This document shows, in pieces, positions 39,934-42,728 of a DNA stretch of 64,000 nt (positions within the stretch are counted from its first letter, which is position 1; the number at the start of each line of letters is the position of its first letter). Below the pieces are notes generated by a model. That model did not search any database, was not told the origin of the DNA, and worked only from the letters and a program-made list of their open reading frames with translations. Both the position numbers and the translations under genes were made by a program. Origin of the DNA: a virus (Duplodnaviria; Caudoviricetes); the IMG/VR virus record IMGVR_UViG_3300029288_000163, positions 6,787-70,786 of that record; one strand, 5' to 3'.

Positions 39934-40202
39934 GCGTCCCCTATGTGATTTAATGCTGACGAATTTGCTGCTGTTACAAAGGCCAAAAGAATTGGGCTAA
40001 TACCAGAAAGGAATTCTACCAATTTCCTTTGCAAAAAATCTTCGGGCATTCCCGGAAGAGCAAATGGAGAAGTCTTTAGAAAACGAGCTACAAGATATTT
40101 GTTGAGAATATTCATGTCTTCAAGGAGCAAATCGTTACTTAAACTTTCCATGTACTTGGAAGCATAAGCAAGTAGTTGAGCGTCTGAGAAATTAGATTCC
40201 AT
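39930..40202 (-). CDS. Hypothetical protein (start uncertain)
   Basis: ORF. Confidence 0.5.
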   Translation of the reverse strand: MESNFSDAQLLAYASKYMESLSNDLLLEDMNILNKYLVARFLKTSPFALPGMPEDFLQRKLVEFLSGISPILLAFVTAANSSALNHIGDA

Positions 40203-41013
40203 AGTGTGTGCGTACTGCTTTCTCAAGTTGTGCAAGAAGTTCAGGATTATTTTTTAGGGCTTCCCATGCATTGTCCTTACCTTGACCAATACATTCGCCA
40301 TTGAAATCCAACCATGCGCCACGCTTGGAAACTACACCACAATTCATTCCGCAAAGGAGAATATCTAGGGCACGGGGGACGCCTTCACCGTATCGGATTT
40401 CTGTTTCTGCTACTTTGTATGGAGGAGCAACCTTGTTCTTCACTACCTTTATTTCTGTCAAATTGCCTAGAATATCTTCACCCTTCTTTATCTGCGCCTT
40501 ACGTCTAATATCCAAGCGAATAGAAGCATAAAACTTTAGCGCATTTCCACCAGAATTGTGAGATAAAACCCCCTCTGAAAAATAACAACCATTTTCCATC
40601 TTAACATCTACAACCGGAATTAGCTTATCTGAAGGTCTGACAAAAATCGGCTGCGATGCTACCCCCGAAGGTTTTTCAGAAAGAACAGAATATTGTAGCA
40701 AAGAGGTGGAAAGATCAGCTAAAGACACCCAATCATAATTTTCATCCTTATACTTTGCATAAAGAAAATGCTCTGGGCTCCCTGAAAATAAATAATGAAA
40801 CCCCCCAGGCCCTTTTTCATAGACCTTATACTCCTGTCTATCATTTTTTCTAATAATTCCCAAAATTTTGCTTTTAACAATCTCCCCCCCAGCATAAGAC
40901 TTTAAATACTTGTTCTGATCAGATACATCAATCATCTTTCCAATTTCCATATTCTGGATCTGGAACCCGAGTTGCTTGAAAAGTTCTTCCATCGAAAGTT
41001 GCTGTGTATTCAT
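40192..41013 (-). CDS. recA: Split-intein C-fragment (153 aa, 40555-41013) fused to the RecA C-extein
   Basis: GGAGA RBS before MNTQQ; SPEH block B; ...VLSHN|SGGNALKFYASIRLDIR ... KNKVAPP. Confidence 0.9.
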   Translation of the reverse strand: MNTQQLSMEELFKQLGFQIQNMEIGKMIDVSDQNKYLKSYAGGEIVKSKILGIIRKNDRQEYKVYEKGPGGFHYLFSGSPEHFLYAKYKDENYDWVSLADLSTSLLQYSVLSEKPSGVASQPIFVRPSDKLIPVVDVKMENGCYFSEGVLSHNSGGNALKFYASIRLDIRRKAQIKKGEDILGNLTEIKVVKNKVAPPYKVAETEIRYGEGVPRALDILLCGMNCGVVSKRGAWLDFNGECIGQGKDNAWEALKNNPELLAQLEKAVRTHYGI

Positions 41014-41986
41014 TAAAATCTCCGTTCGTATCAATCATTCTCTCAAATACTATAGGGTTATAGGAATACAGTGTTTTCTTACCTGTCCCCCTTTGCGAAT
41101 CCGGAAGCCTAGTACGGACACTAATTCTTTTATTTCCAACCTCAGTTAAAATTCCTAAATATTTTAAATATGCTAACCTTGCCAAAACCCCATTTCCAAA
41201 ACTGGGAACAAGTGGATGACAATTTTGTATCATAGAATCGCTAAGAGTGTCATCTAAAAGATATTCCAACATTTCAGGAATATCAGGAACAAAAACACCC
41301 TTTAATGCTTTATATTCTGTGTATGAGTTAGGAATCGATTCTATTTTTGCAGAAACTTTACTTTTGGCTGCTTGCACACGACCTGCCGGATCTTTTGAAA
41401 AATAATCCATATATTGGGAAAACCCGCTAACTTCAATATAGCCCTTGAACTGGTAGTATGCAAGGGCTCTGTGCAATTTAACAGACATTCCAAGCCGCTT
41501 ATTTACCAAACCACTAATAAATCTGTCCGGTAAATTGGTGCAGCAAGAATAATAACAAACCATGGGTGCAATTCTTTCGTACACACCCAACCAACGCTTG
41601 ACAAAATCTGGATTCCCATATCCACGACTTGCCTCGGAACAAAGTTTTCTTGCTCTCTCGGCATAAGGACCCTGCCAAACTGTCCACCCTGCATTTGCTT
41701 CCCCACCAATAGCAACATTATAATTTGTTTTTTGGCTAACAAAATCTATATTAACTATACGTTTCTCCTCTAACAAAGCCTCTTCTCTAGAAGAATGTGT
41801 AGATAAAGTCTGTCTCAAAAAATTATTTCTACCAAATTTACTAATTGCTTGCTTCAAAACATGTCCTGACCCTAAATACCCATCCCCCAAATCATTGGTG
41901 GAATGAACACCAACATACTCCTTATTATTTACTAAACACGTTGTTTTGTACACTATGTGGTACTTTCTCTCTGGTGTATTACTCAT
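40928..41986 (-). CDS. GIY-YIG (Seg-like) free-standing homing endonuclease between the recA halves
   Basis: IVYKTTCLVNNKEYVGVHST ... DGYLGSG ... YNVAIGG. Confidence 0.88.
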   Translation of the reverse strand: MSNTPERKYHIVYKTTCLVNNKEYVGVHSTNDLGDGYLGSGHVLKQAISKFGRNNFLRQTLSTHSSREEALLEEKRIVNIDFVSQKTNYNVAIGGEANAGWTVWQGPYAERARKLCSEASRGYGNPDFVKRWLGVYERIAPMVCYYSCCTNLPDRFISGLVNKRLGMSVKLHRALAYYQFKGYIEVSGFSQYMDYFSKDPAGRVQAAKSKVSAKIESIPNSYTEYKALKGVFVPDIPEMLEYLLDDTLSDSMIQNCHPLVPSFGNGVLARLAYLKYLGILTEVGNKRISVRTRLPDSQRGTGKKTLYSYNPIVFERMIDTNGDFNEYTATFDGRTFQATRVPDPEYGNWKDD

Positions 41987-41987
41987 T

Positions 41988-42016
41988 GGTATAACCTCCT
42001 ATTAGGAGGTTATACC
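41988..42016 (-). promoter_or_regulatory. Perfect 13-bp hairpin sequestering the endonuclease RBS
   Basis: GGTATAACCTCCT-AAT-AGGAGGTTATACC-A-ATG. Confidence 0.85.
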
Positions 42017-42029
42017 TTAAAATTATTCG

Positions 42030-42728
42030 CTAATCTAAAGCGAGTTCCACCTTTGTACTTGGGTGAACACAAGTAGTTTCAGGGCTGCCAAAAAGAACAC
42101 CAATCTTGTAACGAATTTGATTTGTGAAATAAACCATAACGCCCGACTTAGAAACACTGCTTGTCAACTTCCTCAAACCTTGCCCCATAAGCCTTGCCTG
42201 AAGACCAACGTGGCTGTCTCCGACCTCTCCATTTAGTTCAGCCTGAGGAGTCAACGCGGCTACAGAATCAATAACAATGATGTCCCCCTTAGTCAAAATA
42301 CTGGACATAAGGACAGCCATCTCTAAAGCACGTTCACCGCTATCTGGCTGATCAATAAGAAGGTTCTGAACATCCACACCAACTTTTGATGCATATCCGG
42401 TATCCAAGGCGTGTTCAGCATCGATGAAAGCCGCAACGCCACCGGCTTTTTGCACAGCAGCAATGGCATGTAATGTGCAGGTCGTCTTTCCGGCTGACTC
42501 TGGGCCATACACCTCGATAATTCTGCCATGAGGATAGCCCCCAATACCAAGAGCAATATCAAGAGAGGCAATTCCGCTGGAAGTAGAAGTAATATCTGAG
42601 ACTACTCCGTCACCTTTCATCCATTGAAGGTCATTACGAAGATCCTTATTCTTCGATTCCAGAGCTTTAAGAATTTCAACAATCCTATTCGTCTCAACTA
42701 CTGGTTCAGTTGGTGTTTTCTTTGCCAA
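42030..42728 (-). CDS. recA: RecA N-extein fused to a 13-aa split-intein N-fragment (42030-42071 including stop)
   Basis: [27 protein letters not shown]; ends [19 protein letters not shown]. Confidence 0.93.

Follow-up and report, generated by a model that had tools for sequence, protein, structure and literature searches.

The recA gene of the uncultured phage IMGVR_UViG_3300029288_000163 (Caudoviricetes) consists of two separate ORFs on the minus strand, and our reading of the locus as a whole, which we hold with good confidence, is that a selfish cassette of 1517 nt has fractured the gene and that its halves are joined by split-intein trans-splicing. This reading builds on the gene layout, its conservation, a likeness of fold to known inteins, independent assemblies, and a presence/absence polymorphism of the cassette. 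The window referred to throughout is the 64,000-nt stretch of this record that was analyzed, and all coordinates (Table 1) are positions within it.

The first-pass annotation, made from the letters of the window, had placed the break in RecA after GSPETT and had a second ORF resume the protein from SGG onward; both are read on the minus strand as it described. The TTG start of the first ORF lies 3 nt past the stop of the upstream ORF, and its RecA portion runs directly into a 13-residue intein piece (IntN) closed by TAG, read at 42071..42030. Also as proposed, the second ORF has its own ribosome-binding site (GGAG, 6 nt before the ATG at 41013) and encodes 153 intein residues ending in SHN (IntC), followed by the +1 Ser and GGNALKFYAS. 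The second ORF is read in a different frame from the first. Between the halves lies the GIY-YIG gene that had been recognized there, with matches in both Pfam and PHROG and a 3' end that overlaps the IntC ORF by 86 nt (41013..40928); the non-coding DNA between the halves amounts to only 43 nt.

Table 1. Features of the fractured recA locus (positions in the window)
Feature	Position	Strand	Details
RecA-N ORF	42728..42030	-	232 aa, TTG start; Pfam RecA 1.2e-80 over residues 21-220
RecA N-extein, residues 1-219, ending GSPETT	42072..42728	-	
IntN, 13 residues, directly after GSPETT	42033..42071	-	
TAG stop of RecA-N/IntN ORF	42030..42032	-	
Non-coding gap, 43 nt	42029..41987	-	
Hairpin, perfect 13-bp, 3-nt loop	41988..42016	-	
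GIY-YIG homing-endonuclease ORF, free-standing, 352 aa	40928..41986	-	Pfam SegE_GIY-YIG 3e-6; PHROG 314 1.4e-29
GGAG ribosome-binding site of IntC ORF, within endonuclease ORF	41020..41023	-	6-nt spacer to ATG 41013..41011
IntC, 153 residues, MNTQQLSMEELF... to ...GVLSHN	40555..41013	-	SPEH block B (His82), Asp136 block F, terminal His152-Asn153
RecA C-extein, Ser+1 and GGNALKFYAS..., 120 aa and stop	40192..40554	-	Pfam RecA 1e-21, RecA_C 8.5e-16

Comparison with P0036, a contiguous intein-bearing RecA, shows how the pieces fit together. RecA-N aligns to P0036 residues 67-240 at 57% identity, IntN to its CVHPDTMVDV, and the second ORF, from Met1, to residue 245 and onward to residue 503. The two ORFs thus tile P0036, so the break removes no residues. 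By sequence the composite is a class 1 intein, with a nucleophile at position 1, a block B His, a block F Asp, a terminal His-Asn, and a suitable +1 residue. Cys1, which is Cys220 of the RecA-N ORF and directly follows GSPETT, is invariant together with Pro4 and Thr6 in all four RecA-N pieces aligned (alignment A3). His82, Asp136, Asn153 and the extein GG do not vary among the 23 C-pieces (alignment A4), at least 90% of which also carry His152. Block B reads SPEH, with Ser where Thr is usual, at a first position that varies among relatives; the +1 residue, Ser in the window, is Ser, Thr or Cys among the relatives listed.

The break itself is conserved. L001, an IMG/VR locus whose intein is 50% identical to that of the window, repeats the 13-residue tail, the stop and the restart across a 33-nt gap that holds no endonuclease gene, and this recurrence indicates that the split pattern is not due to chance. 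Five of six distinct IMG/VR loci are split at the same point, the sixth being contiguous, and separate N- and C-part ORFs are also present in L001, L003, L004, L005 and L006. The gaps of the five split loci contain a GIY-YIG ORF (two loci), a Vsr-like ORF (two loci) or nothing (one locus). An exhaustive profile search of the intein family placed IntC at the start in 132 of 153 cluster representatives and also recovered contiguous forms; an earlier word-index search, which had found no longer, contiguous relative among 226 candidates, was overturned by this result. N-pieces of 11-15 residues occur within the family, those of 11-12 aa for example in L003, L005, P0052 and P0029. Other searches returned less: a scan of viral contigs with the IntC sequence alone gave no close relatives, 591 stretches of metagenome contigs matched in a scan with alignment A1 and none was confirmed, tblastn against annotated phages matched the RecA part only (with 80% query coverage in none of 245 records), and megablast of positions 36000-46000 against annotated phages gave no match.

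Where IntC begins bears on the length of the second polypeptide. Automatic gene callers start this ORF at Met27 in the window (P0001) and at Met22 in its closest relative (P0002), and the majority of relatives' gene calls start at the equivalent of Met8. We favor Met1 as the putative true start because of the family alignment and the GGAG upstream; in L001 an AGGAG stands equally far upstream of the MNT... start. No promoter or terminator signal was detected for the second recA half, the 6 promoter-like sites found comparing with 7.1 expected, and no RNA run was among the sequencing runs listed as containing the locus.

Structure prediction gave IntC an intein-like fold. The AlphaFold model is of moderate confidence (pLDDT 73.3, the five models spanning 34-73) and begins with a leader followed by helix alpha1 at residues 8-20 (MEELFKQLG). 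Both of its Foldseek matches at E <= 0.001 are inteins (best 4o1s, 6.8e-4), as are most of the further matches listed and each of the 50 entries that VIA-align displays, consistent with a HINT fold, the VIA-align Z scores being middling (4.4-7.1). In most of the VIA-align entries shown, residue 3-7 of the IntC model falls on chain residue 11-16; with VidaL (6vgv; Z 4.5, rmsd 4.9, 116 aligned), model residue 1 falls on chain residue 17, so that the alignment starts just behind VidaL's 16-aa N-piece. At the level of sequence, the C-piece matched no Pfam intein family at E <= 0.1. A search of PDB sequences with the A1 profile at E <= 10 returned 11 sequences, the inteins 1dq3 (0.059) and 2jmz (0.53) among them and VidaL not, and at such sensitivity the window intein is therefore of the same kind as VidaL and of a different sequence family.

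The two intein pieces were also co-folded, using RecA-N residues 196-232 and IntC with 13 further aa, alongside three controls. The ipSAE was 0.87 (runs 0.87, 0.88, 0.87) versus 0.00 for the best of the three controls, with a partner pLDDT of only 55-58; of 157 solved complexes, 116 reach the mark applied to this score, as do 2 of 215 mismatched pairs. Contacts agreed to at least 72%. The predicted interface joins residues 217-232 of chain 1 to residues 76-83, 132-137 and 151-154 of chain 2, among others, and all 13 IntN residues are predicted to lie within it, at the active site. Because solved inteins exist, the score shows likeness and not binding, and it may stem from memorised solved inteins.

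Phages can be viable without RecA, and intact ORFs by themselves are therefore no proof of use. The split could accordingly be real and the intein no longer splicing, with recA either decaying after endonuclease invasion or encoding halves that associate non-covalently. Fractured genes that are not spliced do exist, Aeh1 nrdA being described in the portion of PMC2677866 consulted, and the disagreement of gene callers over the IntC start (Met27 or Met22) could be counted on the same side. We nonetheless regard this explanation as improbable. Cys1, His82, Asp136, His152-Asn153 and the Ser/Thr at +1 are kept in relatives down to ~30% identity, a retention of catalytic residues that would be unexpected without selection for splicing. 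Moreover, both ORFs are intact and identical across three assemblies, and the break falls inside a conserved core motif of RecA, a place that would be unlikely to tolerate 166 additional residues together with a non-covalent nick.

Joining at the RNA level would require a self-splicing group I intron that carries the GIY-YIG gene and interrupts an otherwise contiguous intein gene. Phage group I introns commonly house GIY-YIG genes and recA group I introns are known, according to the sections of PMC2677866 available, yet a search of positions 39500-43500 on both strands gave no Rfam match at E <= 10, bearing out the earlier view that no self-splicing intron fits here. The 43 non-coding nt leave little room for one, and L001 retains the stop and the restart, with 33 nt between them and no endonuclease gene. 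The GGAG and ATG that belong to the second ORF itself recur in L001, and the window ORFs differ in frame; we judge an intron to be very unlikely. Translational bypassing of the 33-nt gap of L001 was considered as well and was ruled out, by inspection only, because the corresponding gap in the window is 1 kb long and is accompanied by a change of frame.

An artefact, either a chimeric assembly or a TAG that is read as sense in a gene that is really contiguous, is the least credible explanation: the window is indeed a metagenome contig, and the L001 spacer has three in-frame TAG codons with its two ORFs in one frame, but contigs from runs X2 and X3 show no differences across the junctions, TAG is an ordinary stop in both genomes (8 of the window's 56 long ORFs, 4 of 13 in L001), and readthrough at IntN in the window would meet TAA 18 codons on, with the halves in different frames. 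Reading TAG through raises ORF coverage of the window from 0.776 to 0.839, similar to the effect for TGA (0.814) and TAA (0.802), and brings no gain in L001, though the two figures for L001 were computed by different rules. The junctions are identical in three Logan assemblies from three studies, one of which is possibly the window's own source. The X2 contig covers 40438-43000 and the X3 contig 40360-42344, each with 0 differences and each from a study other than the window's; two independent metagenome assemblies thus have the same layout, which argues against misassembly.

Protein trans-splicing of the RecA halves is, from sequence and models, the most likely means of joining them, and fits because the Rfam search is blank, L001 has its 33-nt gap, the ORFs tile P0036, the catalytic residues are invariant, and the co-fold separates from its controls.

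In a further contig, from run X1, which is of low depth and diverged, position 42073 connects to position 40506 across 49 letters. On balance 1517 nt are missing from it, and 1517 nt is exactly the distance from the Cys1 codon (42071) through the last intein codon (40555). This contig represents a related strain without the cassette at recA, a presence/absence polymorphism in which the site is empty by lengths only, because the letters between the sides of the joint were not displayed. Further joints with short sides were observed from 40389 to 42673 (X2, X3) and from 40326 to 42071 (X3), together with other short ones.

The endonuclease gene is preceded by a hairpin whose 3' arm includes the AGGAGG ribosome-binding site of that gene. 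Folding of the region gave -27 kcal/mol over 71 nt (z -6.85), with none of 200 shuffles equally stable, and no U-run follows the hairpin. The GIY-YIG protein shares homology, with a conserved N-terminal domain, with the ORFs that lie between the halves in L003 (23% identity) and L005 (29% identity). Its last ~30 residues resemble, in an alternative frame, an L001 ORF at 4925..5077. The endonucleases of L003 and L005 stop before this stretch, and the likeness is explained most simply as a by-product of nucleotide conservation at the IntC 5' end.

From these data we infer how the pieces associate and splice, what the endonuclease targets and how it is regulated. A composite cassette lies in frame at GSPETT|SGG, made up of a class 1 mini-intein gene broken after 13 codons by the GIY-YIG gene. 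Two polypeptides would be produced, RecA(1-219)-IntN(13) and IntC(153)-RecA(120). IntN, representing the first two beta-strands (an S1 split site), would dock into the near-complete IntC and finish the HINT fold, which would put Cys1 beside His82, Asp136 and His152-Asn153/Ser+1. Class 1 splicing in trans would then yield a 339-residue RecA with the native junction ...PETT-SGGNALKF.... The most likely target of the endonuclease is recA without the cassette in co-infecting relatives, where cutting would spread the cassette; translation of the endonuclease is probably damped by the hairpin over its ribosome-binding site.

Both aspects of this gene layout, the fractured gene and the S1-type atypical split, have been published, and the locus is one of many in a large family; the comparisons that follow are with what the consulted portions of the cited papers report. 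Fractured phage genes with intervening endonucleases, which the first-pass annotation took to be known, are indeed documented by Dassa et al. 2009 (PMC2677866) at gp41, NrdA, NrdJ, IMPDH, DnaE and other loci. There as here, the host gene lies in two same-strand ORFs with an intein part at each edge of the break, a free-standing endonuclease gene separates the halves (GIY-YIG or Vsr-like there, GIY-YIG here), the 5' UTR of the endonuclease gene contains a hairpin, and the gene runs at its 3' end into the IntC ORF, by 6-69 bp in that study compared with 86 nt in the window. Alleles without the endonuclease are known for those genes and are represented here by L001. The host genes named in that portion of PMC2677866 do not include recA.

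Among split inteins, the closest in kind are VidaL (6vgv, 16 aa) and PolB16 OarG (15 aa), which share with the window intein a very short N-piece with a nucleophile at position 1 (Ser1 in PolB16), a long C-piece that opens with a short leader and the first helix and carries blocks B, F and G, an S1 split directly past the first beta-hairpin (beta2) and before helix alpha1, and an origin in phages or metagenomes (PMC10189870, PMC13014065). They differ in that the host gene here is recA, and in that splicing has been demonstrated for VidaL and PolB16 whereas the window intein is known here from sequence and models; the C-piece, at 153 aa, is also longer than that of VidaL (~122 aa, PMC10264447 supplement). 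AceL-TerL (25 aa) and GOS-TerL (37 aa) are likewise natural inteins from phages that pair a short N-piece with a long C-piece (PMC11766414, PMC13014065), but break at S2, past helix alpha1, in the terminase large subunit, whereas alpha1 lies in the C-piece here. Canonical split inteins have N-pieces of ~100-130 aa (PMC13014065), and a break after residue 13 is not at this canonical endonuclease-domain site. The engineered Ssp DnaB S1 split (M86, 11-aa N-piece; PMC13014065) has the same split position and a similar length, and its structures 6frh and 6frg are among the structural matches of the IntC model; M86 is artificial and laboratory-evolved, whereas the window intein is naturally split and its split is conserved in a large family.

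The lengths given earlier for VidaL (16 aa) and AceL-TerL (25 aa) agree with the consulted parts of PMC10189870, PMC11766414 and PMC13014065, and the suggestion that IntN is among the shortest natural N-pieces stands against the literature and not within its own family. The natural N-pieces published in the parts of PMC10189870 and PMC13014065 consulted measure 15-37 aa, PolB16 OarG being the shortest, so that the 13 aa found here are two fewer than that record; in a family where 11-15 aa is the range, 13 is unexceptional. A literature search confined largely to open-access papers found no description of an atypically split recA intein, and the label "RecA-b" given earlier to the insertion site is absent from PMC4760082.

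The broader proposal that this recA family has the shortest natural N-pieces (13 aa here, 11-12 in relatives), that these are fully active in trans, and that some relatives assemble RecA from three polypeptides is a tentative one, to which we give slightly less than even credence. In the same tentative reading, the three-polypeptide RecA would contain two inteins at sites 6-9 residues apart, the middle polypeptide consisting of an IntC, a 6-9-aa extein and an IntN, and the sister inteins would then need built-in orthogonality. If the proposal is true, nature has already optimized what engineering reached only through laboratory evolution of the artificial 11-aa Ssp DnaB S1 split.

Short N-pieces are useful for protein semisynthesis, as had been pointed out for this locus, because they can be made as synthetic peptides with labels or modifications. 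According to the portions of PMC10189870 and PMC13014065 consulted, PolB16 OarG (15 residues) is slow and prone to side reactions while VidaL (16) is fast, and the sole tool shorter than 15 residues is the artificial evolved 11-mer (PMC13014065). The more than 100 split relatives, with pieces of 11-15 residues and contiguous cousins, make up a panel for fast, orthogonal short-fragment inteins, of moderate value as a protein-engineering resource, and also suit the question of how so small an N-piece docks. For the biology of these elements, the locus shows gene fracturing giving rise to split inteins at a second position in the intein fold; two unrelated endonuclease families occupy the one gap, and filled alleles, empty ones and ones that lack the endonuclease gene can all be seen.

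On its sequence and modeled structure, the recA of the window is a fractured phage gene carrying a class-1 intein that is split naturally and at an atypical site. The first recA ORF (RecA-N), which starts 3 bases past the stop of the upstream ORF and matches Pfam RecA (1.2e-80, residues 21-220), ends in a 13-residue intein tail, the N-piece. In the spacer that follows, the 3' arm of a hairpin forms the AGGAGG ribosome-binding site of the endonuclease gene; the 71-nt stretch around this hairpin has a folding energy of -27 kcal/mol (z -6.85), a stability matched by 0 of 200 shuffles. 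The endonuclease matches Pfam SegE_GIY-YIG (3e-6) and PHROG 314 'homing endonuclease' (1.4e-29). Within the final 86 bases of its gene, in a different frame, begins the second recA ORF, with GGAG six bases 5' of its putative start ATG. This ORF opens with 153 intein residues (the C-piece), the last being NGCYFSEGVLSHN, continues with SGGNALKFYAS and reaches the RecA C-terminus (Pfam RecA 1e-21, RecA_C 8.5e-16). What the first-pass annotation stated about the sequence is correct throughout: the split point, the N-piece and its stop, the separate GGAG/ATG, the length of the C-piece, the resumption of RecA, the free-standing GIY-YIG gene overlapping the C-part, and the 43 non-coding nucleotides. 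The ORF just upstream of recA has a long Ala/Pro-rich tail (approximately the last 110 residues), and the same repeat produces long spurious ORFs on the opposite strand.

Features of the split recA locus and of other genes in the window
Feature	Position	Strand	Description
ORF just upstream of recA	43026-44339	-	437 aa; no PHROG match
RecA-N ORF	42728..42030	-	232 codons, TTG start
N-piece, end of RecA-N ORF		-	13 residues, then TAG stop (42032..42030)
Spacer between RecA-N and endonuclease gene		-	43 non-coding bases
Hairpin in spacer	42016..41988	-	perfect 13 bp, 3-nt loop
GIY-YIG homing endonuclease gene	41986..40928	-	352 aa
Second recA ORF	41013..40192	-	ATG start
Second free-standing GIY-YIG homing endonuclease	24283-25452	-	389 aa
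DNA methyltransferase	37076-38506	-	476 aa
ORF with endonuclease VII-like segment	49650-50810	-	386 aa
Family A DNA polymerase gene	50770-52959

An exhaustive profile search for relatives of the C-piece recovered full RecA proteins interrupted by a contiguous intein, among them P0036 (508 aa). In alignments with P0036, RecA-N covers residues 67-240, through CVHPDTMVDV, at 57% identity, and the second ORF, from its first Met, covers residues 245-503 at 37% identity; judged by these alignments, the two ORFs together make up an entire contiguous intein-RecA without loss. The break point is the loop joining the first beta-hairpin to the first helix. Cys1, Pro4 and Thr6 are invariant in all four alignable N-pieces, as are block B His82, block F Asp136 and terminal Asn153 in 23 of 23 C-pieces (down to ~30% identity), with His152 present in at least 90% of the latter; in the relatives listed, Ser, Thr or Cys follows the intein. 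Such conservation of all catalytic residues fits poorly with decay of recA, or with halves that merely associate non-covalently.

An AlphaFold model of the C-piece (pLDDT 73.3, from a 5-sequence alignment) was compared to solved structures. Both Foldseek matches in the PDB at E ≤ 0.001 were inteins (best 4o1s, 6.8e-4), as were most of the further matches listed and all 50 VIA-align entries shown, the latter at middling Z scores of 4.4-7.1. For most inteins shown, model residue 3-7 falls on intein residue 11-16; on VidaL (6vgv; Z 4.5, rmsd 4.9, 116 aligned) residue 1 falls on residue 17, directly behind the 16-residue N-piece of that intein. This register fits a modeled C-piece without just the stretch that a 13-mer would supply. 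When residues 196-232 of RecA-N were co-folded with residues 1-166 encoded by the second ORF, the score was 0.87 (runs 0.87, 0.88, 0.87) versus a best of 0.00 in three controls; 116 of 157 solved complexes attain this mark, as do 2 of 215 mismatched pairs. The runs agreed in at least 72% of their contacts, with partner pLDDT of 55-58. The confident interface comprised residues 217-232 of the N-chain and, on the C-chain, the leader and helix, 76-83 (block B), 132-137 (block F) and 151-154 (His-Asn/Ser+1). Because many inteins have been solved, this predicted pairing shows likeness to solved inteins rather than binding of these particular pieces.

Could the TAG instead be read as sense, making the gene contiguous? 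In L001, a related IMG/VR locus, both recA ORFs do share one frame, with three in-frame TAG codons in the 33-nt spacer between them (4965-5000). However, of the window's 56 long ORFs 8 end in TAG, as do 4 of the 13 in L001, a stop usage that argues against recoding in L001. Reading through TAG raises ORF coverage of the window from 0.776 to 0.839, and TGA (0.814) and TAA (0.802) give about as large a rise; L001 coverage shows no gain, though its two figures follow different rules. In the window, moreover, read-through meets a TAA after 18 codons and the halves lie in different frames. Joining of the halves by RNA splicing is also improbable: only 43 bases are non-coding, L001 keeps the same stop and restart 33 bases apart with no endonuclease gene, and a search of 39500-43500 on both strands gave no Rfam match at E up to 10, in line with the earlier view that no self-splicing intron fits. 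Three sequencing runs (Logan assemblies, three studies) contain >0.9 of the locus's sampled words and speak against misassembly, since their contigs show 0 differences from the window across 40438-43000 (X2), 40360-42344 (X3) and 40143-42522 (X1, possibly the window's own source).

The split-intein reading also agrees with six distinct IMG/VR loci, five of them split. L003 and L005 have 11-aa N-pieces and GIY-YIG gap ORFs homologous to that of the window. L004 and L006 have 13-aa N-pieces and Vsr-like gap ORFs related to each other (E 7e-12), the former with weak DUF559 and NUMOD3 matches and the latter with no Pfam match at E ≤ 0.01. L001 has a 13-aa N-piece and no gap ORF, and L007 carries a contiguous intein. 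Locus by locus, the sequences place the break at a conserved point while the gap content varies. The window endonuclease extends ~35-40 residues beyond the ends of its L003/L005 homologues, into the C-piece ORF (40928-41030, minus strand), and endonuclease-free L001 has a similar open alternative frame at that place (4925-5077, plus strand); this frame probably follows simply from conservation of the nucleotide sequence.

In the 'fractured gene' of Dassa et al. 2009 (PMC2677866), the two halves of a split intein flank an endonuclease gene; hairpins precede that gene, it overlaps the intein part downstream of it by 6-69 bp, and some alleles lack it. The window locus has the same layout and belongs to a known kind; it differs in its atypical break site. 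Natural splits after beta2 (S1) include VidaL (16 aa) and PolB16 OarG (15 aa) (PMC13014065, PMC10189870), and those after helix 1 (S2) include AceL-TerL (25 aa) and GOS-TerL (37 aa) (PMC13014065, PMC11766414). The window intein shares the S1 kind with VidaL but belongs to a different sequence family at the sensitivity tried. In our literature search no account of a recA intein with an atypical split came up.

X1 also holds a diverged, low-depth contig (record 5; depth 6.1 versus about 437), whose two pieces lie on window 42522..42073 and 40506..40340 (31 and 56 differing letters) with 49 letters between. The window has 1566 bases in that place, 1517 more than the relative. This difference matches, to the base, the stretch that opens with the Cys1 codon (first base 42071) and closes with the Asn153 codon (last base 40555); deleting that stretch from the window leaves both RecA halves in one frame. 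The deficit equals the full intein-endonuclease cassette and, judged by length, indicates a related phage in the X1 sample with an uninterrupted, intein-free recA. Such an allele would be the natural target of the gap endonuclease.

Among proteins, the C-piece profile matched 152 cluster representatives at E ≤ 0.001 (52 at 1e-10, 3 at 1e-30). When all 153 collected proteins were re-scored with an HMM of a family alignment (A2), 132 had the C-piece at their very N-terminus, split forms that may include genes cut by contig ends (119 single copy, 13 with additional internal copies). The other 21 had internal copies only, 16 of them with a C-[VIL]-x-[PL]-x-[TS] motif just upstream. Two main groups emerged from the residues that follow: 76 inteins run straight into ..GG (at the window's site or two residues upstream of it) and 62 into x[FY]GxP.. 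(after KIG, about eight residues upstream). Six were partial, and 28 had other strings, several being versions of the main two and a few representing different sites or host proteins. In seven proteins the sequence closes with an N-piece of 11-15 residues. P0029, P0033, P0052, P0082 (165-170 aa) and P0119 (421 aa) resemble the middle segment of a RecA made in three parts: an N-terminal C-intein, 6-9 extein residues (e.g. TIFGNPETT), then a terminal N-intein of 11-14 residues. Two sister split inteins so few residues apart would need to avoid cross-reaction. Across L003, L004, L005, L006 and the listed relatives, homologous inteins occupy three adjacent points of one RecA motif (after KIG, GNPE and GSPETT), which, with the varying gap ORF, points to repeated invasion of a gap already present or to a sliding insertion point.

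Elsewhere in the window, the second GIY-YIG endonuclease (PHROG 314, 3e-48) carries NUMOD1, NUMOD3 and I-HmuI-like DNA-binding modules and is flanked by ORFs without family matches. The 386-aa ORF, whose endonuclease VII-like segment spans residues 37-104 (PHROG 1035, 7.7e-19), shares 41 nt with the 3' end of the DNA polymerase gene and could be a further mobile nuclease. The methyltransferase matches PHROG 67 across residues 9-473 over only 227 profile positions, and residues 122-186 give a weak HTH-repressor-like match, suggesting an inserted domain.

Taken together, the split recA intein shows every hallmark of a functional, mobile element whose splicing is predicted from sequence and models. 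Its N-piece bears out the proposal that it is among the shortest in nature: a March 2026 paper gives a natural range of 15-37 aa, so that 13 residues lie two under the published record of 15 (PMC13014065, PMC10189870), with relatives down to 11, the length of the N-piece in an artificial, evolved Ssp DnaB split (PMC13014065). The recA split-intein family is therefore a worthwhile resource for protein semisynthesis.
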